Under the pieces are notes generated by a model. That model worked only from the letters and a program-made list of their open reading frames with translations, ran no database searches and had not been told where the DNA came from. From positions 103,387 through 167,386 of the forward strand of contig CANRIX010000002.1 of assembly GCA_947630765.1 (NCBI GenBank): DNA of 64,000 bases, read 5' to 3'. The stretch is from an uncultured Clostridia bacterium. Its GTDB lineage: Bacteria; Bacillota; Clostridia; Oscillospirales; CAG-382. A program made the translations under genes and the position numbers. Numbering within the stretch: position 1 is the first letter of the stretch; each line of letters begins with the position of its first letter. Below, piece by piece: positions 1,034-56,193 of the stretch.

Positions 1034-1160
1034 GCGTAAACCGACCTCTTTCCGTCGTGGGACGTCCTTTTTTCACAGTATAACCGATTTGCGGGGAAAA
1101 TGCAAGCGTTATCGCACAGGAAAAACGCCTTCCGCCGAAAAAAACCAACGAAAATAAAAA

Positions 1161-1349
1161 TACAATAAAATTTGTTCCGGAGGCGGACATGTGCCGCCGG
1201 AGGAACTCCTTAAGAGAAAAACGGCGAAGGCGGCGTCAGAATTGGCGCAAGCCGAGCCATTTTTCGACGAAAGGGGAGTATTTGGGGGGAAAACGCAGAG
1301 CAAGGCGACGCATAGCGGCGACGCCGCGATTGCGTTTGCCCCCCGAAAG
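1161..1349. repeat. Structured intergenic repeat, copy 1 of 3 (co-oriented with copies at 28891-29092 and 55994-56193)
   Basis: Near-identical core CCTTAAGAGAAAAACGGCGAAGGCGGCGTCAGAATTGGCGCAAGCCGAGCCATTTTTCGACGAAAGG. Left hairpin 1175-1205 (TTCC GGA GGCGG ACATGTG CCGCC GGA GGAA). Right long hairpin 1284-1344 (GGGGGGAAAACGC...GCGTTTGCCCCCC). Ends 4 nt from the TAA stop of the HAD gene. Confidence 0.85.
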
Positions 1350-1353
1350 AAAG

Positions 1354-2007
1354 TTATAAAATCTCCCTGCAGAACGCATTCAGCGACGGGTAGACCGCGG
1401 CATAGGCGCGGATCTCGTCGGTCGGCGGGAACAGGTCGGGGATCATGACCACCCGCGTCCCCGCCCGACGGGCGGATTCCAACCCCGCATAGCTGTCCTC
1501 GACCGCGTAGGCGTCCGCAGGCGATACGTCCAGCAGGCGGCAGGCGGTCAGGTAGATCTCCGGGTCCGGCTTGCCGTGCAGGAACATATCCCCGGTCGTC
1601 AGGACGTTGAAGTAGGCGCGGATGTTCGCCTGTTCGAGGTTCGCGATCGCGCCCTCCCGCCGGGTCGAGGTCGCCAGGGCGATGCGGAAACCGTTTTCGT
1701 GCAGGGCGGAAAGCGTTTCGTGCAGTCCGGGCTTGAGCGGCAGACCGCGTTCGTCGATCAGGCGGCGGAAGCAGGCGGTCTTGCGGGGACCGAAATCCGC
1801 ATAGGCGACTTTTCCGCCGAACCACGCGTCGAAGATCTTTTCCGTGTCCGCTCCGTTATGACCGGCACAGCGGTCGCGAATCTCCCGAATGTCGATGCCC
1901 ATCTCCTCGCCGACGATGTCCCACGCCTCGTAGTAGACGCGTTCCGTGTCGAACAGCACGCCGTCCATGTCGAATACGACGGCTCTCGGCTTTCTTGCTC
2001 CGTTCAT
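1354..2007 (-). CDS. HAD-IA family hydrolase (beta-phosphoglucomutase-like phosphatase)
   Basis: Start trimmed to MNGARKPRAVVFDMDGVLFDT. HAD motifs present: DMDG, GKPDPEIY, EDSYAGLESARRAG. ATGA overlap with the scfB stop (2004-2007). Confidence 0.8.
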   Translation of the reverse strand: MNGARKPRAVVFDMDGVLFDTERVYYEAWDIVGEEMGIDIREIRDRCAGHNGADTEKIFDAWFGGKVAYADFGPRKTACFRRLIDERGLPLKPGLHETLSALHENGFRIALATSTRREGAIANLEQANIRAYFNVLTTGDMFLHGKPDPEIYLTACRLLDVSPADAYAVEDSYAGLESARRAGTRVVMIPDLFPPTDEIRAYAAVYPSLNAFCREIL

Positions 2008-3419
2008 ACTGGCTCCTTGACCTCTTCTTCCCGCGGCTGCCGCAGCGCGACCTGCAGCATCAATGCGCATTCGATGCGCTTGCGGAACAGCCTGCACCCG
2101 TACTCGTACACGCCCCGGATGCTCCCGGACGCGTGTATGGCGTTCGCCGCACATCCGCCGGAACAGTACAGCTTCGCCCAGCAGTCCTTGCATTCCTCCC
2201 GTGCGTACACGCTGCACCCCTTGAACTCGTCCCGCAGGGCCGTATTCGTCACGCCCTGCCAGACGTCCCCCATTCGGTAGGCCGGCTCGCCGACGAACTG
2301 GTGGCAGGGGTAAAGCTCGCCGGTCGGCGTGACCGCGAGGTATTCCGTTCCGCTTCCGCACCCGGCGAGCCGCTTATACAGGCAGGGCCCGCCGGTCAGG
2401 TCGAGGTTGTAATGGTAGAAATGGAACCCCTTTCCGGCGCGTTCCCGGCGCAGCATCTCGGCGGCGAGAAGCTCGTACTGCTCGCAGACGATCGGGAAGT
2501 CCTCCTCCGTCAGGGCGGCGGGATCCCCGGGCGCACAGACGACCGGCTCCATGGACAGCTCGGTAAAGCCGAGGTCCGCCATATGCAGCAGGTCCGGCAG
2601 GAACGCCGCGTTGCGGTGGGTGAACGTGCCGCGGACGTAGTAGTTCCGCCCGCCCCGCTTTTCGACGAAACGCTGGAACTTCGGGACGATGACGTCGTAA
2701 CTGCCCTCCCCGGACGGGGTCTTGCGCAGCGCGTCGTGCGTTTCCTTCCGCCCGTCGAGGCTGAGTACGACGTTGTGCATCTCGCGGTTGGCGAATTCCG
2801 TCACCTCGTCGTCGAGCAGGACCCCGTTGGTGGTCAGCGTGAAGCGGAAGCGCTTGCCGGTCTCCTCCTCGCGGGAACGGGCATAGGCGACCAGGCGCTT
2901 GCAGACGTCCCAGTTCAGCAGCGGCTCCCCGCCGAAGAAATCCACTTCGAGGTTCCGCCGCTTGCCGGAATGTGCGATGAGGAAATCCAGCGCCTGCTTC
3001 CCGGTTTCGTAGGACATCAGCGCACGCGGACCGTGGTACCGCCCTTGCGACGCGAAGCAGTAGGAACAGTTGAGGTTGCAGGTGTGGGCGACGTGCAGGC
3101 AGAGCGCCTTGACTTCGGTCTTGCGGGCCTTCCAATCGACGGCGACGTTTTCGTAGGTGTCCTCGGTGAACAGCTTCTTCTGCGCACGCAGGGATTCGAC
3201 GTCCGCGTACAGCTCTTCGAGCGACGAAACCGTCACTCCCGGGTCGTCCCGGTATTTTTCGAGCATGCGGCGGGTCAGTTCCGCCCGGTCGGTGGTTTCG
3301 AAAAGGGAAATGACGTCGTAGGCGAGGTCATCGACGAGGTGGACCGAGCCGGAAAAGACGTCCAGCACGACGGAATAGCCGTGCAGCTTAAATTGATGGA
3401 TCAAAAAATCACACTCCAA
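2004..3419 (-). CDS. scfB: Radical SAM/SPASM thioether-forming SCIFF peptide maturase
   Basis: 471 aa with the CNLNCSYC radical-SAM motif and a C-terminal Cys-rich SPASM region (CKDCWAKLYCSGGC). Lies immediately downstream of the SCIFF precursor. Confidence 0.9.
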   Translation of the reverse strand: MECDFLIHQFKLHGYSVVLDVFSGSVHLVDDLAYDVISLFETTDRAELTRRMLEKYRDDPGVTVSSLEELYADVESLRAQKKLFTEDTYENVAVDWKARKTEVKALCLHVAHTCNLNCSYCFASQGRYHGPRALMSYETGKQALDFLIAHSGKRRNLEVDFFGGEPLLNWDVCKRLVAYARSREEETGKRFRFTLTTNGVLLDDEVTEFANREMHNVVLSLDGRKETHDALRKTPSGEGSYDVIVPKFQRFVEKRGGRNYYVRGTFTHRNAAFLPDLLHMADLGFTELSMEPVVCAPGDPAALTEEDFPIVCEQYELLAAEMLRRERAGKGFHFYHYNLDLTGGPCLYKRLAGCGSGTEYLAVTPTGELYPCHQFVGEPAYRMGDVWQGVTNTALRDEFKGCSVYAREECKDCWAKLYCSGGCAANAIHASGSIRGVYEYGCRLFRKRIECALMLQVALRQPREEEVKEPV

Positions 3420-26507: not shown

Positions 26508-27173
26508 TTATAAGCCGTACTTCGTCTTGACGCGTTCCAGCATTTCCCCGACCGGGCGGGCGAGGACGAGCAGGAACACGACGTTCGACACCGCGTACAC
26601 CGCCGTGACCGGCAGAGCGGAAAGCAGTGCCGCGACGTAGGAGATCCCGGTCCACAGGGCGGTCCAGACGTCGACGAGCAGGGAAAACAGCACGCCGGAG
26701 AGCGCCCCGAACCCGTACAGCAGCAACCGGCTCTTCTTCAGCCCCTTCGCGAACACCCCAGCGAGCAGCCCGATGATCCCCCACGCGAGCATTTGAAACG
26801 GGGTCCACGGACCCTGCCCGAAATAGAAATTGGAAAGCACGGCGGACAGCGACCCGGTCAGGAATCCCGCCTCCCCGCCGAACGCGACGCCGGCGATGAT
26901 GACGAACGCCGTCACCGGCTTGAAGAACGGCAGCATGCCGAACAGCACCCGTCCCGCGACGGACAGGGCGGTCAGGGCGGCGAGCAGGAGCAGCGTCCGG
27001 GTGCTTTTCTCCTTCCGCTCGAACGTCAGGAAGAACGGCAGGACGGACAGCACCGCGGCGCACAGCGTGACCCACACCGCTGCCTGCTCCCGGAACAGCA
27101 GCGTCCCGCCGACGACGCAGGCGGGCAGGACGGCGCAAAGCAGGACGCGGGAGAGGACTTTTCGCCGGTTCAT
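26508..27173 (-). CDS. ECF-transporter S (substrate-capture) component-like membrane protein
   Basis: 221 aa from ATG 27173 with 6 TM. Motif FKPVTAFVIIAGVAFGGEAGFLTGSLSAVLSNFYFGQGPWTPFQM. 4-nt overlap with the ATPase gene. Confidence 0.65.
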   Translation of the reverse strand: MNRRKVLSRVLLCAVLPACVVGGTLLFREQAAVWVTLCAAVLSVLPFFLTFERKEKSTRTLLLLAALTALSVAGRVLFGMLPFFKPVTAFVIIAGVAFGGEAGFLTGSLSAVLSNFYFGQGPWTPFQMLAWGIIGLLAGVFAKGLKKSRLLLYGFGALSGVLFSLLVDVWTALWTGISYVAALLSALPVTAVYAVSNVVFLLVLARPVGEMLERVKTKYGL

Positions 27174-28846
27174 GGCTTTCCCCCCGCACGGCGGCAGACG
27201 TTCACGACCTCCTCGCAGGTGATCGCGTTCGGGAAAAGCCCCCGTGCGATGCGGCTTGCGGCGGTCGTGTAGAAGCTGTTTCCGGCAAAAAAGTCGTGCG
27301 GGTCGCCCGCGGAAAGCACCTCGCCGTCGAACAGCAGGGCGCAGCGGTCGGCGTATTCCGCCGCGAATTCCACGTCGTGCGTCGCGAGCAGGACCGTCGT
27401 CCCGCCGTCCCGCAGTTCCCGCAGGAACCGCCCGAGGAAGCGCTTGTAGACCGCGTCGAGCCCTTTGGTCGGCTCGTCGAGCAGCAGCAGACGGGGCTTC
27501 GACAGCAGCAGCTTCGCGAGCGCACACTTCTGCTGCTCCCCGCCGCTCAGGTCGAACGGGTGCCGGTCGAGCAGGGACGTCACCCCCAGCCGTTCGGCTG
27601 CGGATACGGCGAGCGCTTCCCGTTCGCCGCGCGGGACGCCGAGCGCCTGCAGCAGGTCGAGGAAGTCCGCACGGACCGTGTTTTGCAGGAACACCGTCTG
27701 CGGGTTCTGCGGCAGGAGGGAAAGCCCGTTCCGATAGAGCGAACCGCCCCGGTAGGAGCCGACCGGTTTGCCGAGGACGCTGACCTTCCCGCGATAGGGC
27801 TTTTCCAGTCCGGCGATGACCTGCAGCGCCGTGGTCTTGCCCGCGCCGTTGCCGCCGAGCAGAAAGAAGCATTCCCCCGCTTCCACCCGCAGGGAGGTCC
27901 CGCGCAGGACGTCCGGGCTTTGCTTCGCGTAGCGGAAGTAGACCTCCCGCAGTTCGACCGCAGGTTCGCCCGTGCGTGCGGGGGATTCGAACGGCGTTTC
28001 GGACGGTTCGGACGGCGCATAGTGCGCTTCCAGGACCTCCCGCCCTTCCCGGACGGTCAGCGGGCAGTCCCCGGAAAGCCCGAGCGACCGAAAAATACGC
28101 ACTGCGCTCGGCAGTCCCGCCGAAAGCACGCACCCTTCCGGCAGCTTAGACGGGTCGCCGACCTCGCGGGGCGGACCGAACAGCACCGATTTTCCCGCTT
28201 CGAGCAGCAGCACCCTGTCCGCCAGCGGGAACGCTTCCTCCAGCCGGTGCTCCGCGAGCAGGACCGTGATGCCGAGCTCCCGGTTGAGCTTCCGAAGCGT
28301 CGAAAGGAATTCCGAAGCGGCGATCGGGTCGAGCTGACCGGTCGGTTCGTCGAGCAGTAACAACTTCGGCTGTAGGACCGTCGCGGACGCGAGGTTGACC
28401 AACTGCTTCTGCCCGCCCGAAAGCGTGTCCGTCGCCTGCCGGAACTGCGCTTCCAGCCCGAAATAGCTTGCCGTTTCCGCGACCCGACGGCGGATCACGT
28501 CGTTCGGCAGACCGAGGCTTTCCGCGCCGAACGCCAATTCGTGCCAGACCTTGTCCGTCACGATCTGCCCGTCCGGGTTCTGCCCGACAAAGCCGATGTC
28601 GGACGCGCTTTCACGCGCGTCGAGCGCTTCCTGCGGTCGACCGCCGAAAAGGATCCGTCCGTTTTTTTTGCCGTGCGGGGAAATTTCTCGCTTCAGCAGG
28701 CGCAGGAGCGTGGATTTCCCGCAGCCGGACGCCCCGCAGAGCAGCACGAATTCCCCCGCTTCCATGGAGAACGACAGGTCCGACAGGGCGTCCGCCTGTG
28801 CGTTCGGATAGCGGAAGGACAGATTTTCGACTTGCAGGAACGGCAT
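27170..28846 (-). CDS. Duplicated (A-A fused) ABC/ECF-transporter ATPase
   Basis: 558 aa from ATG 28846 (MPFLQVENLSFRY). Two Walker A motifs (GASGCGKST, GGNGAGKTT) and two LSGGQ-type signatures. Confidence 0.85.
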   Translation of the reverse strand: MPFLQVENLSFRYPNAQADALSDLSFSMEAGEFVLLCGASGCGKSTLLRLLKREISPHGKKNGRILFGGRPQEALDARESASDIGFVGQNPDGQIVTDKVWHELAFGAESLGLPNDVIRRRVAETASYFGLEAQFRQATDTLSGGQKQLVNLASATVLQPKLLLLDEPTGQLDPIAASEFLSTLRKLNRELGITVLLAEHRLEEAFPLADRVLLLEAGKSVLFGPPREVGDPSKLPEGCVLSAGLPSAVRIFRSLGLSGDCPLTVREGREVLEAHYAPSEPSETPFESPARTGEPAVELREVYFRYAKQSPDVLRGTSLRVEAGECFFLLGGNGAGKTTALQVIAGLEKPYRGKVSVLGKPVGSYRGGSLYRNGLSLLPQNPQTVFLQNTVRADFLDLLQALGVPRGEREALAVSAAERLGVTSLLDRHPFDLSGGEQQKCALAKLLLSKPRLLLLDEPTKGLDAVYKRFLGRFLRELRDGGTTVLLATHDVEFAAEYADRCALLFDGEVLSAGDPHDFFAGNSFYTTAASRIARGLFPNAITCEEVVNVCRRAGGKP

Positions 28847-28890
28847 GAACGGGCTCCTTTCGGGGAATATGACTTCACATAAAGATAAAA

Positions 28891-29092
28891 TACGATAAAA
28901 TATTGTTTCGGAGACGGACATGTGCCGGCTCCGAAACACCTTAAGAGAAAAATGGCGATGGCGGCGTCAGAAGTGGCGCAAGCCGAGCCATTTTTCGATG
29001 AAAAGGGGGGGCTTTGGGGGAAAAACGCAGAGCAAGACGGTGCGGCGACGAAGTCGCTGCCGGCACCGCGATTGCGTTTGTCCCCCAAAAAA
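28891..29092. repeat. Structured intergenic repeat, copy 2 of 3
   Basis: Same core as copy 1 with a few substitutions. Left hairpin 28906-28936 (TTTCGGAG A CGG ACATGTG CCG G CTCCGAAA). Right hairpin 29016-29086. Ends 2 nt from the TAA stop of the 71-aa gene. Confidence 0.85.
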
Positions 29093-29094
29093 CT

Positions 29095-29310
29095 TTACGT
29101 CTTCGGGTCTTGCTTTCTTGCCGGGAACAAGGTGCAGCCGTAGGACCGCCATTCCTCGATCTTCCCGCGCAGCAGCGCTTCCGACACGCCAAACCGCTTC
29201 GCGAGGCAGGGGACACACCGATACGCCGTCGACGCGCGGTTGATGAGCTTGCGGGTCGCGCCGATATCGTCCGGGGTCAGCGCCCGTCCGCAGTCAAGGC
29301 ATTCAGGCAT
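29095..29310 (-). CDS. Small CxxC...CxxC zinc-ribbon-like protein (71 aa)
   Basis: MPECLDCGRALTPDDIGATRKLINRASTAYRCVPCLAKRFGVSEALLRGKIEEWRSYGCTLF. 8-nt overlap with the GH27 gene end. Confidence 0.55.
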   Translation of the reverse strand: MPECLDCGRALTPDDIGATRKLINRASTAYRCVPCLAKRFGVSEALLRGKIEEWRSYGCTLFPARKQDPKT

Positions 29311-33555: not shown

Positions 33556-34386
33556 ATGAAAAAGATTTTAACTGTCACCCTCGCGTTCGTGCTGGCGTTT
33601 TCGGCGTTCAGCCTGTTGGCCGTCTCTGCGGAGACGAGGGAACCGCTCTGCGTTTTCAACGTCAAGGGCGTCAACGGTATGATCGGCGGCGAGGACTGCG
33701 TGCTCTTTACGACGCAGGACGCTTACAACAGCGGCAACCCCAACTGGGCGATCACGATCCTGCTTGAGGTCAAGGACGACGGCACGCTGGTCGTCAAGGA
33801 GAAGGCGATCGCAGGGCAAGGTGCGGTCCCTGCCGGCGTGAAGGTCGGCGACGGCGTGGTCGCGCTGGTCGTGCATTCCGCCGCCTCCAAGGTGGAGGAT
33901 AAGGATACCTATCCCAACGTCGAAGCGAAGCTCGCCGCGCAGGAAGCGGACGTCGGCATGACCGTCGTGCTCGACGGCATCGACCTCGAAAACGCGTCCG
34001 GCGAAGGCACGGCGACGCTCTATCCGGCGGCGTCCGGCGGTACGGACGGCTCGTCCTCCGCCGCGTCGTCTGCGGCTTCGTCGGAAGCCTCGTCCGAAGC
34101 ATCGTCTGAAGCTTCGTCTGCCGCTTCCTCGGAGACCTCGTCTGCCGCGTCGTCTGAAACTTCTTCCGCGGCGTCCTCGGCGGTTTCGTCCGAAGCGTCG
34201 TCCGCCGCGTCGTCTGCGGCTTCCTCCGCGGTGACTTCCGCGCCGCAGTCGTCGAGTGCAGCGTCGTCGGAAACCTCCACGTCTGACGGCGGTCTTTCGG
34301 GCGGTGTGATCGCGGTCATCGTGATCGCGGCCGTGGTCATCGTCGCCGCAGTCATCGCGATCGTGGTCGTGAAGCGCAAGAAGTAA
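33556..34386 (+). CDS. Cell-surface protein: signal peptide, about 140-aa globular domain, Ser/Ala-rich repeat linker, C-terminal TM anchor + KRKK
   Basis: MKKILTVTLAFVLAFSAFSLLAVSA signal. SSAASS/SEASS repeats. C-terminal VIAVIVIAAVVIVAAVIAIVVVKRKK. Confidence 0.6.
   Translation: MKKILTVTLAFVLAFSAFSLLAVSAETREPLCVFNVKGVNGMIGGEDCVLFTTQDAYNSGNPNWAITILLEVKDDGTLVVKEKAIAGQGAVPAGVKVGDGVVALVVHSAASKVEDKDTYPNVEAKLAAQEADVGMTVVLDGIDLENASGEGTATLYPAASGGTDGSSSAASSAASSEASSEASSEASSAASSETSSAASSETSSAASSAVSSEASSAASSAASSAVTSAPQSSSAASSETSTSDGGLSGGVIAVIVIAAVVIVAAVIAIVVVKRKK
34050..34290 (+). repeat. Imperfect 15-nt tandem repeats encoding SS(A/E)(A/T)S units (inside the CDS)
   Basis: Reiterated tcgtc(c/t)gc(c/g)gc(g/t)/gaagc(c/t/a) units give the run SSAASSAASSEASSEASSEASSAASSETSSAASSETSSAASSAVSSEASSAASSAASS. 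Confidence 0.65.
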
Positions 34387-34393
34387 ATCGAAT

Positions 34394-34485
34394 ATACGCC
34401 GGGGAGCTTGCAGACAGGCTGAGAGGAAGGTGCGCCCTTCGACCCGTGACCTGATTTGGATAATGCCAACGTAGGGAACTTTCAG
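34394..34485 (+). promoter_or_regulatory. TPP (THI-box) riboswitch aptamer
   Basis: Conserved elements GGGGAGC...CTGAGA...ACCC...ACCTGATTTGGATAATGCCAACGTAGGGAA, directly upstream of thiS. Confidence 0.85.
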
Positions 34486-34499
34486 CGATTGCTTGCATC

Positions 34500-51293: not shown

Positions 51294-51370
51294 GGCGGAA
51301 TAGCTCAGTTGGCTAGAGCAATCGGTTCATACCCGGTCGGTCGTCGGTTCGAGTCCAACTTCCGCTACCA
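51294..51370 (+). tRNA. tRNA-Met (anticodon CAT), elongator type
   Basis: Hand-folded cloverleaf: acceptor GGCGGAA/TTCCGCT, D arm GCTC/GAGC, anticodon loop TTCATAC, T loop TTCGAGT, encoded CCA. Confidence 0.85.
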
Positions 51371-51372
51371 AA

Positions 51373-51447
51373 GGCCCGTTGGTCAAGGGGTTAAGACACC
51401 GCCCTTTCACGGCGGTAACAGCAGTTCAAATCTGCTACGGGTCACCA
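51373..51447 (+). tRNA. tRNA-Glu (anticodon TTC)
   Basis: Acceptor GGCCCGT/ACGGGTC, anticodon stem CCGCC/GGCGG with loop CTTTCAC, T loop TTCAAAT, encoded CCA. Confidence 0.9.
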
Positions 51448-51563: not shown

Positions 51564-53195
51564 TTACTTGTCCGTGACGATCATCAGGATCCCCTCGGCG
51601 CCGAGGTTGTTTTCGGGGATGGTCAGGATCCCTTCGTCGATCAGCGTTTCCGTCAGCAGATCGAACACTGGTTGGGTCGCGAGGGAAACTGCGAATTCGT
51701 ACTCCCCGAGCAGGTGTGCGGGCAGGTAGGCGCGCAGCAGCGGGGCAAACGCCTCGGCGAGCGCGTCCGCCGCGTCCGTCATTTCCTCGCCGAACCGCAT
51801 GGCGACGGCGCGAAGCTGCTGTCTTGTCTGTTTGTCGCAGACGAGGAATTTGGTGTAGAGCGTATCCCCTTCGCGGTAGAGGTACCCGACCTCGATCGCT
51901 TTCGCGGCGTGCTCCTTTTCCGCTTCCGAAAGCGTATGGACGTCGATCCCGTTGACGGCGCGGACGGCGAGCAGAAGGTCCGGGTCGAGCGAGATGTTGT
52001 GCCCGCATTCGAAGTGGGCGGAAAGCTGCTTGCAGTAGTTGTTGTCGATATCGACTTGCGCGTAGCCGCAGAGATCGGCAGCAGAGATGCCGTCGACGCC
52101 GCAGCCCCGCGGGACGTTCCCGTCCGCCGGAATGCGGTATCCGTACGACGTGTACGGGCGGTCCGGGTGCGTCACGTCCGTAAAGAACCGTTTGGACAGC
52201 CGATCGACGACCGTCCATTCAAAGTGACCGGATAGCCATTTGACCTCCTCCCAAAGGATAAGCGGCAGGTCCGTCCTGCGGTTGCGGAACGGGATAGCGA
52301 GGTATTCCTCGCGGTGGGCTTCGACGAACCGCAGCAGCCCTTCCCGCAGTTCGGGCAATTTGCTGCGGCAGGCATCCCAGAGGGATTGGATTTGCGCTTC
52401 GTCGAACAGTGCGATGTTGACGGCATACCGCCCGTTTTCCGTTTTGCGAAGCGGACCGTAGTGTCCGTTTTTCCCTTTGACGAGCAGTTCCAGTTCTTCC
52501 TCGACGTACAGCGTCGGCACGGAGAGCGCTTCGGCAAGTTCCTTTGCCGTGCGGGGCTTTTCCCGGCAGAGCCAGATGAGCTGCTTCGAGAAGGTGCGGT
52601 CAAAGCAGTTGCTCGGATCGTTTCCGACCGGGTCGCCTGTACCCCAAATGCACAGGTCGATGGTTTGCAGCGAGATCGGTTTTTGCATCGGTTCCATGTT
52701 CGTTACCTCTTTTCTGATTTGTTGCCTTGCCGAAAACAGACGTTGCCGGATGGTGTTCTCGCTCGTGTTCTGCCGCACGGCGATCTCCGCGGCGGACAGC
52801 CCGTCTAAGTAGTAGTCGATCATCACCTCGCGGTAAGCGCACGTCAGGAACGCGATGGAACGGAAGATGCGTCCGAGCGCTTCTTCGTCGGTTTCGCCGT
52901 CGTTCGCGTCCTCCGGCTCGTCCGCGACGCTGTCGAGCGTTTCATAGCGGACGGTTTCGCCGTTCCTTCGCCGTTTTTCGGCGAAATCCGCGTAGACGTT
53001 CCGTGCGATGCGCCAGAGAAAGGCGTAGAGGTTTTCCACCTCGCCCTCCTTTTGCGCCGCTTCCACGAGCGCGAGCGTGATGTCCGAGCAGAGCTCCTGC
53101 GCTTCGTAACTGTCGCGGGTGCGCACATAGCAGAACCCGAACAGCTTGTCGAGCAATTCCTGGTCGATGGCTTTCAGCAAGTCCTGTTTTTTCAT
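51564..53195 (-). CDS. ECF-like sigma-70 factor fused to a C-terminal soluble domain of about 365 aa
   Basis: 543 aa from ATG 53195 (MKKQDLLK). Sigma region 2 (LFGFCYVRTRDSYEAQELCSDI) and region 4 (LSAAEIAVRQNTSENTIRQRLFSARQQIRKE), then a long extension without TM segments. Confidence 0.75.
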   Translation of the reverse strand: MKKQDLLKAIDQELLDKLFGFCYVRTRDSYEAQELCSDITLALVEAAQKEGEVENLYAFLWRIARNVYADFAEKRRRNGETVRYETLDSVADEPEDANDGETDEEALGRIFRSIAFLTCAYREVMIDYYLDGLSAAEIAVRQNTSENTIRQRLFSARQQIRKEVTNMEPMQKPISLQTIDLCIWGTGDPVGNDPSNCFDRTFSKQLIWLCREKPRTAKELAEALSVPTLYVEEELELLVKGKNGHYGPLRKTENGRYAVNIALFDEAQIQSLWDACRSKLPELREGLLRFVEAHREEYLAIPFRNRRTDLPLILWEEVKWLSGHFEWTVVDRLSKRFFTDVTHPDRPYTSYGYRIPADGNVPRGCGVDGISAADLCGYAQVDIDNNYCKQLSAHFECGHNISLDPDLLLAVRAVNGIDVHTLSEAEKEHAAKAIEVGYLYREGDTLYTKFLVCDKQTRQQLRAVAMRFGEEMTDAADALAEAFAPLLRAYLPAHLLGEYEFAVSLATQPVFDLLTETLIDEGILTIPENNLGAEGILMIVTDK

Positions 53196-53285
53196 GACGG
53201 TTTCCTTTCGGAAGCGGTTGATCAACGCTTTCACCCGTATAGTCCCGCGAAAGCGGGATGTGTTAGGCGAAAAAAAGAAAAAATT

Positions 53286-53341
53286 TGCAAAAACCGAGTA
53301 AACTGATAAAAAAAGGTGCAAAAACCGAGTAAACTGATAAA
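53286..53341. repeat. Two perfect 25-bp direct repeats (TGCAAAAACCGAGTAAACTGATAAA) with 31-bp periodicity
   Basis: Units at 53286-53310 and 53317-53341, in the divergent region between the sigma-fusion gene and the Rrf2 gene. Confidence 0.85.
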
Positions 53342-53357
53342 GTTTCGGAAAAATCCC

Positions 53358-53386
53358 TTGACAAAGCGGGAAAAAGCGAATAAAAT
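53358..53386 (+). promoter_or_regulatory. Rrf2 gene promoter (TTGACA-17-TAAAAT)
   Basis: TTGACAaagcgggaaaaagcgaaTAAAAT. Confidence 0.5.
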
Positions 53387-53421
53387 GGAGGAAAGAACAC
53401 AGGGGAAAGGGGCGAAGCATC

Positions 53422-53859
53422 CTGAAAATTTCCACCAAAGGGCGCTATGCGCTGCGCATGTTGGCGGACCTCGCCGAGCACGGCGGAAGCGGGTACGTCG
53501 CGCTCAAGGACATCGCCGAACGGCAGCAAATCTCCAAAAAGTACCTCGAACAGATCGTCCCGCTGCTCAGCCGGAGCGGGATCCTTCGGACCAATCGGGG
53601 CTTTCAGGGGGGCTATCAGCTCGCCAGAACGCCGGACAGATGCACGGTCGGGGAGGTCCTGCGGCTGACCGAGGGCAGTCTTGCCCCGGTCGATTGCCTG
53701 CTGCGCGACCCCGTCGGTTGCGAGCGGAGCGCCGACTGCGCGACCCTGCCGGTCTGGCAGGGGCTTTATAAGGTCGTCAACGAATACCTCGACGGGATCA
53801 CCTTGCAGGATATCATCGACCAGAAGAACCGTCGCGGCGTCAACGACTACGTGATCTGA
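53422..53859 (+). CDS. Rrf2-family transcriptional regulator with three-Cys cluster motif; probable non-ATG (CTG) start
   Basis: The in-frame upstream extension (L)KISTKGRYALRMLADLA restores the conserved Rrf2 N-terminus. SD AGGGGAAAGGGG at 53401-53412. Cys motif CLLRDPVGCERSADC. Confidence 0.75.
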   Translation: MKISTKGRYALRMLADLAEHGGSGYVALKDIAERQQISKKYLEQIVPLLSRSGILRTNRGFQGGYQLARTPDRCTVGEVLRLTEGSLAPVDCLLRDPVGCERSADCATLPVWQGLYKVVNEYLDGITLQDIIDQKNRRGVNDYVI

Positions 53860-55993: not shown

Positions 55994-56193
55994 TATAATC
56001 AAAATGTCGTCCCGTAGGCGGACATGTGCCGCCGGAGGGACTCCTTAAGAGAAAACGGCGAAGGCGGCGTCAGAAGTGGCGCAAGCCGAGCCGTTTTTCG
56101 ATGAAAAGGGGGAATGTTCGGGGGGAAAACACAGAGCAAGGCGGAGCGCACGAAGTGCGCGAAGTCGCCGCGATTGCGTTTGCCCCCCGAAAG
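55994..56193. repeat. Structured intergenic repeat, copy 3 of 3
   Basis: Same core. Left hairpin 56009-56041 (GTCCC GTA GGCGG ACATGTG CCGCC GGA GGGAC). Right hairpin 56120-56188. Ends 3 nt from the TAA stop of pepF. Confidence 0.85.

Follow-up and report, generated by a model that had tools for sequence, protein, structure and literature searches.

A lineage-specific family of intergenic repeats with a conserved three-domain fold, predicted to be expressed as structured RNA, in an uncultured Clostridia bacterium

The DNA analysed here, a stretch of 64,000 nucleotides from contig CANRIX010000002.1 of an uncultured Clostridia bacterium (hereafter the window), contains at positions 28906-29086 part of an intergenic stretch flanked by two genes on the minus strand, an ECF-type ABC ATPase gene and an open reading frame (ORF) of 71 amino acids (aa) without a Pfam match. 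This intergenic DNA carries a repeat of approximately 190 nt, which is the subject of this study and whose copies point to a candidate family of structured RNAs. The repeat occurs three times in the window (copies 1, 2 and 3, Table 1), and no other substantial dispersed repeat is present within the 64 kb. The flanking genes are unrelated housekeeping genes, comprising those for a HAD hydrolase, a membrane protein, the ABC ATPase, the 71-aa ORF, a radical SAM enzyme and PepF. The three copies lie on the same strand and are nearly evenly spaced (1184, 28915 and 56019, with distances of 27,731 and 27,104 nt), which, given n=3, is most likely a coincidence.

Table 1. Copies of the repeat in the window, domains of copy 2 and neighbouring genes.
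Feature	Positions	Strand	Details
Copy 2 (subject of study)	28891-29091	+	cmsearch 196.6 bits, E 1.4e-55, model positions 1-198; nhmmer E 2.8e-54
AT-rich leader, copy 2	28891-28901	+	TACGATAAAAT; family consensus AAAAATACAATAAAAT; conserved in 47 copies
P1 (hairpin 1 of the earlier note), copy 2	28905-28937	+	Outer stem, internal loop or paired variant, inner stem, loop
J1/2, single-stranded linker ACCUYAAGA, copy 2	28938-28946	+	Columns invariant or near-invariant in alignment A2
P2, central three-part hairpin, copy 2	28947-28996	+	Best conserved domain
J2/3, linker with first G run GAUGAAAAGGGGGGGC, copy 2	28997-29012	+	Conserved
P3 (hairpin 2 of the earlier note), copy 2	29013-29089	+	Irregular long hairpin UUUGGGGG.../...CCCCCAAA; detected as inverted repeat
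P3 variable tip, copy 2	29037-29067	+	31-nt class: CGGUGC/GCACCG around GCGAC-GAA-GUCGC
Copy 1	1160-1349	+	cmsearch 212.3 bits; P1 at 1174-1206
Copy 3	55995-56193	+	cmsearch 215.4 bits
ECF-type ABC ATPase gene	27170-28846	-	Pfam ABC_tran x2, E 7.6e-57; start 45 nt left of copy 2
Convergent 71-aa ORF	29095-29310	-	ORF list; stop codon 29095-29097, 3-4 nt from the 3' end of copy 2
HAD hydrolase gene, convergent to copy 1	stop codon 1354-1356	-	ORF list, Pfam
Radical SAM gene, 5' side of copy 3	ends 55936	+	ORFs, Pfam
pepF, 3' side of copy 3	stop codon 56197-56199	-	ORFs, Pfam

Further copies were collected by a scan of one genome per species, covering 185,579 species, with the 21-nt core GCGTCAGAANTGGCGCAAGCC as query. 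The scan yielded 48 loci (referred to by L numbers). Of these, 45 belong to three metagenome-assembled genomes (MAGs) of 'uncultured Clostridia' from rabbit gut, Lapin-012_bin103, Lapin-032_bin93 and Lapin-026_bin80, and the remaining three are chance matches in unrelated phyla. The three MAGs hold at least 47 copies besides those of the window. No true copies were found in viral contigs, plasmids, phages or Joint Genome Institute (JGI) metagenomes; five matches in the JGI metagenomes are chance matches inside unrelated coding regions. The nearest other genus, with 63% protein identity, had no copy within the approximately 60 kb examined. Since copies occur only in the three MAGs and the window and nowhere else among the sequences searched, the repeat family is confined to a single narrow lineage. 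The window is about 92% identical to Lapin-012_bin103 across the overlap and thus comes from a sister species of bin103. Dozens of copies are present per genome, every one of them intergenic, and the density in the window is roughly one copy per 20 kb, i.e. about 50 per Mb. Contig ends inside the repeat were found in the related MAGs and in a Logan assembly (L001, L018, L037, L041, L043 and L049). Because the repeat fragments short-read assemblies, all copy counts are lower bounds. A search of the whole window with Rfam 15 at gathering thresholds matched only a thiamine pyrophosphate (TPP) riboswitch and two tRNAs and left the repeat unmatched. A lenient search (E <= 10) of 28800-29200 returned as its sole match a chance iron-responsive element (IRE) outside the repeat.

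The architecture of the repeat was derived from alignment A2, which comprises 29 insertion-free copies, with RNAalifold and a covariance model, R1, built from the A2 copies. Read 5' to 3' on the plus strand, the repeat consists of three domains, hairpin P1, the central hairpin P2 and the long hairpin P3, and is preceded by the AT-rich leader, which has the consensus AAAAATACAATAAAATATCG in the full architecture and ends 3-9 nt upstream of P1. In P1, outer and inner stems of 5 bp each are separated by a 3x3 internal loop GNA/GGA, and the inner stem is capped by a 7-nt loop, which reads ACAUGUG in copy 2 (28918-28924). In one third of the copies the internal loop is replaced by a fully paired GGAG/CUCC beside a purine-purine mismatch. 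The apical part of P2, GCGUCA-GAAG-UGGCGC (28964-28979), contains a U·G pair and is invariant, although this invariance is partly a product of the copy collection, for which apical P2 served as the search pattern. The family consensus of the linker 3' of P2 is CGAYGAAARGGGGGUAUU. P3 is closed by the helix UUUGGGGGG/CCCCCCGAA in the family; its bulges are conserved, one G·U pair is near-invariant and the tip is variable. Optional hairpins are inserted at four sites, of which the first is the 3' side of P1, the second follows P2, the third lies between the G runs and the fourth is the tip. Owing to these inserts some copies reach a length of 255 nt (range including optional modules, 185-255 nt). 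An extra hairpin, GTGTCGAYTTTATCGACAC, directly follows P3 in L007 (6919-6945) and in L021 (5512-5538), which belong to different MAGs. Conserved single-stranded linkers together with G·U pairs are as expected of a protein-binding or tertiary-structured RNA.

An earlier note on the locus, made from the letters of the window, had described two hairpins, which correspond to P1 and P3, and had omitted the central hairpin P2. It stated that the outer stem of hairpin 1 varies between copies and stays complementary, and the quoted helices were indeed found in the three copies (GTTCC/GGAAC in copy 1, GTTTCGGAG/CTCCGAAAC in copy 2 and GTCCC/GGGAC in copy 3). The common loop ACATGTG was confirmed as well. 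The common inner stem GCGG/CCGC did not hold for copy 2, which has CGG/CCG beside an A·G mismatch and a paired GGAG/CTCC where copies 1 and 3 have the internal loop GGA/GGA. In copy 2, the exchange of a G-C for an A-T pair in the stem that closes hairpin 2 is present, and the three tip hairpins fold as described.

To quantify covariation, the pairs of the consensus structure were counted in both alignments. In A2, 91.6% of 1622 cells were standard pairs, and 22 of the 56 pairs had changed on both sides (112 cells). Among 500 shuffles none was as high as the real alignment on four of the five measures; this control overstates significance, as the copies share descent and recombination. The controls with slid partners, in which the 3' partners were moved by 1-3 columns, do not have this weakness, and in these pairing fell to 37-47%. 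When 42 copies were aligned to the covariance model, 93.7% of the cells were paired, 21 of 53 pairs were compensatory (144 cells) and 0/500 shuffles reached the observed values on all five measures, with the restriction that this alignment was fitted to the structure and its counts lean towards it. Compensatory changes were found in all three domains. They affect four of the five pairs of the P1 outer stem, which is 97.6-100% paired, and 11 of the 24 pairs of P3. In the basal helix of P2 (98.8% paired), CG, AU and GC alternate at two pairs, with 20 and 6 compensatory cells. Individual pairs take three Watson-Crick types (CG/AU/GC or CG/UA/AU), one P2 pair being CG in 21, AU in 18 and GC in 2 copies. 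Additionally, the two terminal bases of the P1 loop change together, being A..G in 22 copies and G..A in 7, which suggests a non-Watson-Crick constraint. For the plus strand of copy 2 the folding energy is -96.8 kcal/mol (z = -8.4). Clearly, the fold is maintained by compensatory substitution beyond chance. The proposal of the earlier note that structure is kept while sequence changes in both hairpins, pointing to selection on a single-stranded fold, is therefore supported by 21-22 compensatory pairs, at values that 0/500 shuffles attained.

As hairpins form on either strand, the strand was judged by wobble intermediates. The RNAalifold pair table contains 89 G·U or U·G cells versus 8 A·C or C·A cells. 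The U·G pair of P2 was found in 42 of 42 copies and the G·U pair of P3 (columns 242-331) in 38 of 41, and on the minus strand both of these pairs become C·A mismatches. The RNAalifold consensus energy was -47.6 on the plus strand compared with -23.5 on the minus strand. The earlier note had proposed folding both strands, and when this was done the minimum free energy was lower for the plus strand in 43 of 43 copies, with a mean difference of 15.3 kcal/mol; the G-rich composition accounts for part of this energy advantage but not for the direction of the intermediates. These data show that the fold is specific to the plus strand. A transcription-linked C-to-T bias would give the observed wobble pattern only with the plus strand as the non-template strand, which would again imply transcription in the plus sense.

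The tip of P3 had been described as completely different in each copy, and a role as a specificity module had been suggested for it. Neither claim was borne out by the larger collection. The 43 copies carry 38 different tips, which fall into three classes by length (21, 29 and 31-36 nt), and every class is built on a single mini-hairpin design, in which C-G closes a GAA, GUA, AUA or AAA triloop. The tip is almost wholly self-paired and only the triloop is free. Identical tips occur at loci that are not orthologous (L015/L020, L007/L024 and L037/L046). Copy 3 and its orthologue L008 have the same tip, and other orthologous pairs carry different classes. The P1 outer stem and the four optional hairpins are as variable as the tip. 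The P3 tip is probably a tolerated stem extension of free length, variants of which are shuffled among copies by recombination. Mini-hairpins of the types GCGAAGCG and GCGTAGCG were seen in P3 tips and also immediately beside copies L002, L015, L025, L026, L030 and L046.

In a scan of all column pairs for an additional helix or a pseudoknot, the top ranks were all taken by the nested helices. CCUY in J1/2 could pair with RRGG in J2/3 to form a helix closing P2; this pairing is compatible in 90.5% of cells, but the controls give no support for it. The first G run varies in length together with the C run closing P3 (G-C 15, A-U 10; A2 columns 116, 135 and 199, corresponding to about 29004, 29021 and 29081 in copy 2). 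In four copies both G runs carry an identical CGAGGGGGG, matching CCCCCCUCG. This covariation may represent an alternative pairing or mere linkage within the 3' half of the repeat.

The repeats are placed in a preferred orientation to their neighbouring genes. Of 41 evaluable copies, 32 have the gene on their 3' side on the other strand. A convergent stop codon is located within 15 nt of the repeat 3' end in at least 23 of 44 copies by strict criteria, and in all three window copies the distance is 3-5 nt. On the 5' side gene ends are mostly 22-294 nt distant, often with a separate terminator-like hairpin in the space between gene and repeat. At 47 loci, the genes within 3 kb of a copy share no recurrent protein family, and the largest cluster consists of ABC ATPase paralogues. 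A second repeat family, a palindromic terminator-like unit CCCCATTCAAGGGRCTTTTTGAAAAAAGYCCCTTGAAAATTCCCAAAAACTTTTCGG, was observed in the related MAGs, often just to the left of the structured repeat (L002 1900-1960, 2200-2270 and 2420-2470; L039 5440-5500; also L006, L007, L015, L017 and L045); the unit is absent from the window.

Within the leader, the box TACAAT is conserved as a sequence and not as mere T-richness, at a distance of 7-10 nt from the first base of P1. The box resembles the -10 box of a promoter, and at this distance a -10 box would place the start of an RNA at the foot of P1. For copy 2, a sigma-70 scan found TTCACA-16-TAAAAT at 28874-28901, matching 10/12 positions.

On the basis of these sequence features we propose, with moderate confidence, that the copies constitute a new lineage-specific family of structured-RNA repeats that is predicted to be expressed from the plus strand. 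Each copy would be a transcription unit of its own, with the TACAAT box setting the RNA start, and its plus strand would be transcribed into a small structured non-coding RNA, for which P3 may act as the 3' structure. Since such a unit points towards the end of the gene next to it, the transcript or its transcription would overlap the 3' untranslated region (UTR) of that gene in antisense. The variable tip would be a helix extension of free length and not a recognition module, and the spread of the family may have been that of a selfish or semi-domesticated element, as with other structured repeats between genes. A more elaborate version of this idea, which we regard as speculative and quite unlikely, assumes a common P1-P2-P3 scaffold bound by one protein and a locus-specific tail that targets the 3' end of the neighbour's mRNA. 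Given that no consistent terminator follows P3 and that a convergent stop codon is adjacent, such a transcript would run into the neighbour's 3' end. If this were true, the RNAs would represent a repeat-borne, self-templating guide system; to our knowledge, no such system has been described in bacteria.

Besides the shared descent and the base composition mentioned above, several points weigh against expression from the plus strand. Of the window copies only copy 2 passed the sigma-70 scan, there is no conserved -35 box, and position 2 of the TACAAT box varies (A, G or T) among copies. Four or more T within the 8 nt after P3 were found in only 16 of 44 copies, so that there is no consistent U tract. 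A terminator scan of the plus strand of the three window copies detected none at P3; two plus-strand matches near copy 1 both lie within the repeat. The minus strand of copy 2 also folds well, at -87.0 kcal/mol (z = -7.5). Finally, position and orientation match those of a 3'-UTR or terminator module on the minus strand, since the repeat lies just past a stop codon, and its reverse complement opens with a long hairpin and ends, as such a module would, in hairpin P1 and AUAUUUUAUUGUAUUUUU.

The main rival explanation is a mobile 3'-UTR or terminator module on the minus strand. Its reverse complement would fold into three hairpins in the mRNA of the adjacent gene, and the last of these, the P1 complement, would together with AUAUUUUAUUGUAUUUUU terminate transcription or protect the mRNA 3' end. 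We consider this possible, though rather improbable. Such a module would resemble pneumococcal SPRITE or REP elements, and SPRITE has the same positional bias (PMC3184786) as seen here with the nearby stop codons, present in all window copies, and the orientation in 32 of 41 copies. On the minus strand, the P1 complement is followed by GAUAUUUUAUUG or GAUAUUUUAUUGUAUUUUU, which resembles a weak terminator and was flagged by the scan in copy 3 only, and the leader is T-rich on this strand. Against this explanation stands the predominance of wobble pairs of the plus-strand type (89 versus 8), including the two invariant or near-invariant pairs that would be lost as C·A mismatches, and the lower stability of the minus strand in 43 of 43 copies. 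What is conserved in the leader is TACAAT and not a U run, and GAUA instead of U comes first after the P1 complement. Furthermore, a downstream gene on the same strand as the repeat is found in 9 of 41 copies, several of which sit just upstream of promoters (L003, L010 and L044), and a separate terminator hairpin is already present shortly past the repeat in many copies.

Alternatively, the fold might be that of single-stranded DNA. The repeat would then be a non-autonomous transposon of the palindrome-associated transposable element (PATE), IS91 or short interspersed nuclear element (SINE) kind, with a single-stranded DNA or RNA intermediate and with hairpins recognised by an enzyme encoded elsewhere. 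This we judge to be unlikely. It would agree with the strand asymmetry in an element without terminal inverted repeats or target-site duplication, with a sharp 3' boundary and a fuzzy 5' boundary, and with the high copy number in a single lineage. Long target duplications were found in L021 (29 nt) and L045 (39 nt, with a shortened 5' end), and GCGAAGC-type mini-hairpins, which are unusually stable in DNA, are present in tips and flanks. On the other hand, covariation over the whole length, together with the conserved linkers and G·U pairs, exceeds what end-recognition hairpins need, and neither boundary shows a conserved target motif. The orientation of the repeat is independent of local GC skew (23/48), and no transposase or reverse transcriptase recurs near the copies, for which loci of 8 kb were covered. 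In five of five orthologous comparisons the site is occupied in both species, so that the insertions are old, with no sign of recent movement and no presence/absence polymorphism documented. A strain with a 97% identical ABC protein, the only close relative of this flanking gene, carries the same junction at copy 2, and its contig ends within the repeat.

Known types of miniature transposons were examined separately. A classical MITE (miniature inverted-repeat transposable element) was rejected on account of the ends of the repeat, as the 5' 40 nt and the reverse complement of the 3' 40 nt are not similar (mean z = 0.26; z > 3 in 0/43), and on account of its flanks, whose local alignment gave z < 2 in 41 of 44 copies. 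The exceptions are L026 with 12 nt (z 5.5), L021 with 29 nt and L045 with 39 nt. At L021 (5270-5560) the flanking direct duplication is a 29-nt terminator hairpin, and at L045 (4310-4620) it is a 39-nt duplication of a gene 3' end, about 80% identical, beside a shortened leader. A PATE derived from IS200/IS605, which would have related end hairpins, was likewise rejected, hairpins 1 and 2 being unrelated in sequence (mean z = 0.03). An element of this type would also have a conserved target of four or five nucleotides directly 5' of its left end; the left boundary of the repeat is fuzzy, and beyond the AT-rich leader no conserved motif was seen.

Comparison of orthologous loci revealed extensive exchange between copies. 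Copy 1 and its orthologue L022 are identical over the first 95 nt and have about 72% identity afterwards. The orthologues L029 and L040 are distinguished by an entire inserted hairpin and by tip class; L017 and L045 differ in the tip and in the P1 outer stem, the latter with compensation. Copy 3 and L008 are 95% identical, in comparison with 92% for their mostly coding flanks, and two changes at their P1 loop ends (A..G to G..A) follow the family-wide covariation. The breakpoints fall within the invariant P2 core. As orthologous copies are mosaics, the copies swap segments by recombination within this core, giving a mosaic of P1 types, inserted hairpins and P3 tips. Such breakpoints also explain why P2 of copy 1 has an isolated C·A mismatch. 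In L002 a strongly diverged copy (1962-2117, minus strand) is inverted relative to the orthologous copy in L039 and retains the P1 5' half, GCGAGCCGAG and the C-run end; at 2520-2545 of the same locus a remnant of the repeat 3' end still abuts a gene stop.

Descent and exchange of this kind are also the basis of a further explanation, namely a decaying palindromic repeat without function at the RNA level, the covariation of which would stem from shared descent and gene conversion among a few founders. Blocks exchanged between copies and mismatches made by recombination, such as that in copy 1, would fit it, and according to the documentation of the tool related sequences without structure can exceed the shuffle control. 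We nevertheless regard it as very unlikely, because the slid-partner controls preserve relatedness and give 37-47% pairing versus the 92-94% observed, single pairs show three Watson-Crick types, and the 5' and 3' strands of P1 and of P2 covary although recombination separates the repeat halves. The greater identity between copy 3 and L008 than between their flanks, with loop-end changes that follow the family pattern, argues in the same direction.

A riboswitch or cis-regulatory leader was rejected because the downstream gene is opposite in 32 of 41 copies and the neighbours are unrelated; a minus-strand riboswitch, first suggested by the C·A mismatch in P2 of copy 1, because more than 40 copies show a wobble bias in the other direction and the mismatch proved to be a scar of recombination; and a small protein gene because the frame is shifted among copies 1, 2 and 3 by an A run that has 4 or 5 bases, the ATG of the P1 loop being replaced by ACG or GTG in many copies.

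Some other features of the window were recorded. The TPP riboswitch aptamer (RF00059, 64.2 bits, full length) is located at 34390-34494 on the plus strand, upstream of plus-strand genes. About 150 nt upstream of it, at 34030-34245, are 12 overlapping copies of a TCGTCNGMNGCN-like unit with a 12-nt period, probably low-complexity coding sequence rich in acidic residues, Ser and Ala. Adjacent genes for tRNA-Met (CAT) and tRNA-Glu (TTC) occupy 51294-51447 on the plus strand. A tandem 31-nt AT-rich repeat, AAAAAATTTGCAAAAACCGAGTAAACTGATA, with two near-identical units and a degenerate third, is found at 53278-53390 and may lie inside a candidate minus-strand ORF (51564-53438).

With many dispersed, lineage-restricted intergenic copies and a compensatory structure, the present family belongs to the structured intergenic repeats of the bcr1, BOX and SPRITE kind. 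It is not a member of the bcr1, SPRITE/BOX or REP families. It has no Rfam match, inverted repeats or target duplications and is distinguished by its three-domain fold and by a preferred strand antisense to the adjacent gene. In bcr1 of the Bacillus cereus group, a repeat of about 155 bp reported to be transcribed, structure is kept at the RNA level by compensatory changes (PMC3184786). Both bcr1 and the present repeat are lineage-specific and intergenic, have tens of copies and form several hairpins with compensatory changes. However, bcr1 has 5-bp flanking direct repeats and a distribution that is not conserved between strains, whereas the present repeat lacks a target duplication, occupies orthologous sites and has three domains; no sequence relationship between the two was found. 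BOX of Streptococcus pneumoniae is modular with a variable number of internal units, has a predicted RNA fold and is transcribed (PMC3184786). The present repeat shares modularity and positional bias with SPRITE and BOX, but has a near-invariant central domain, lacks boxA and boxC ends and has no known mobilising insertion sequence. It is also larger than SPRITE (about 105 nt) and, unlike in SPRITE and BOX, its best-folding strand is antisense to the adjacent gene. REP/BIME and ERIC-type palindromes often lie between convergent genes, and an effect on mRNA 3' ends has been proposed for them (PMC3184786). Like these, the present repeat is GC-rich, hairpin-forming and extragenic, but REP is a single palindrome of 20-40 nt, whereas the fold here spans 190 nt in three domains, has conserved unpaired linkers and prefers one strand.

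Two further kinds of element have similarities to the repeat and were rejected. Integron attC sites resemble it in keeping structure over sequence, in a strand-specific fold with a variable centre and in their location right after a stop codon. An attC site is a single imperfect hairpin with R'' and R' core sites in cassette arrays beside an integrase, whereas the present repeat has three domains and occurs as single copies. Its 3' side, upon inspection, reads GTTTGCC and not GTTRRRY, no arrays were seen and the flanks are housekeeping genes. The guide-RNA scaffolds of transposons (omega RNA/HEARO of TnpB and IscB, bridge RNA of IS110) are multi-copy RNAs of 150-250 nt with strong covariation, encoded beside or inside the gene of the partner protein. 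The likeness lies in a structured multi-copy RNA with strong covariation and a sharp boundary beside variable flanking DNA, but there is no recurrent neighbour protein at 47 loci and no Rfam match.

Restriction to a single lineage limits the general importance of the repeat family. If the plus-strand RNA is real, an uncultured gut lineage would possess a structured RNA family that is new, is present in many copies and has unusually clear covariation. In addition, the repeat breaks MAG assemblies, and it offers a good test case for distinguishing RNA-level from DNA-level selection in repeats. The oriented placement at convergent stop codons is explained neither by random insertion nor by known MITE mechanisms. 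This placement could reveal targeting of gene 3' ends or a repeat-borne control of mRNA 3' ends.

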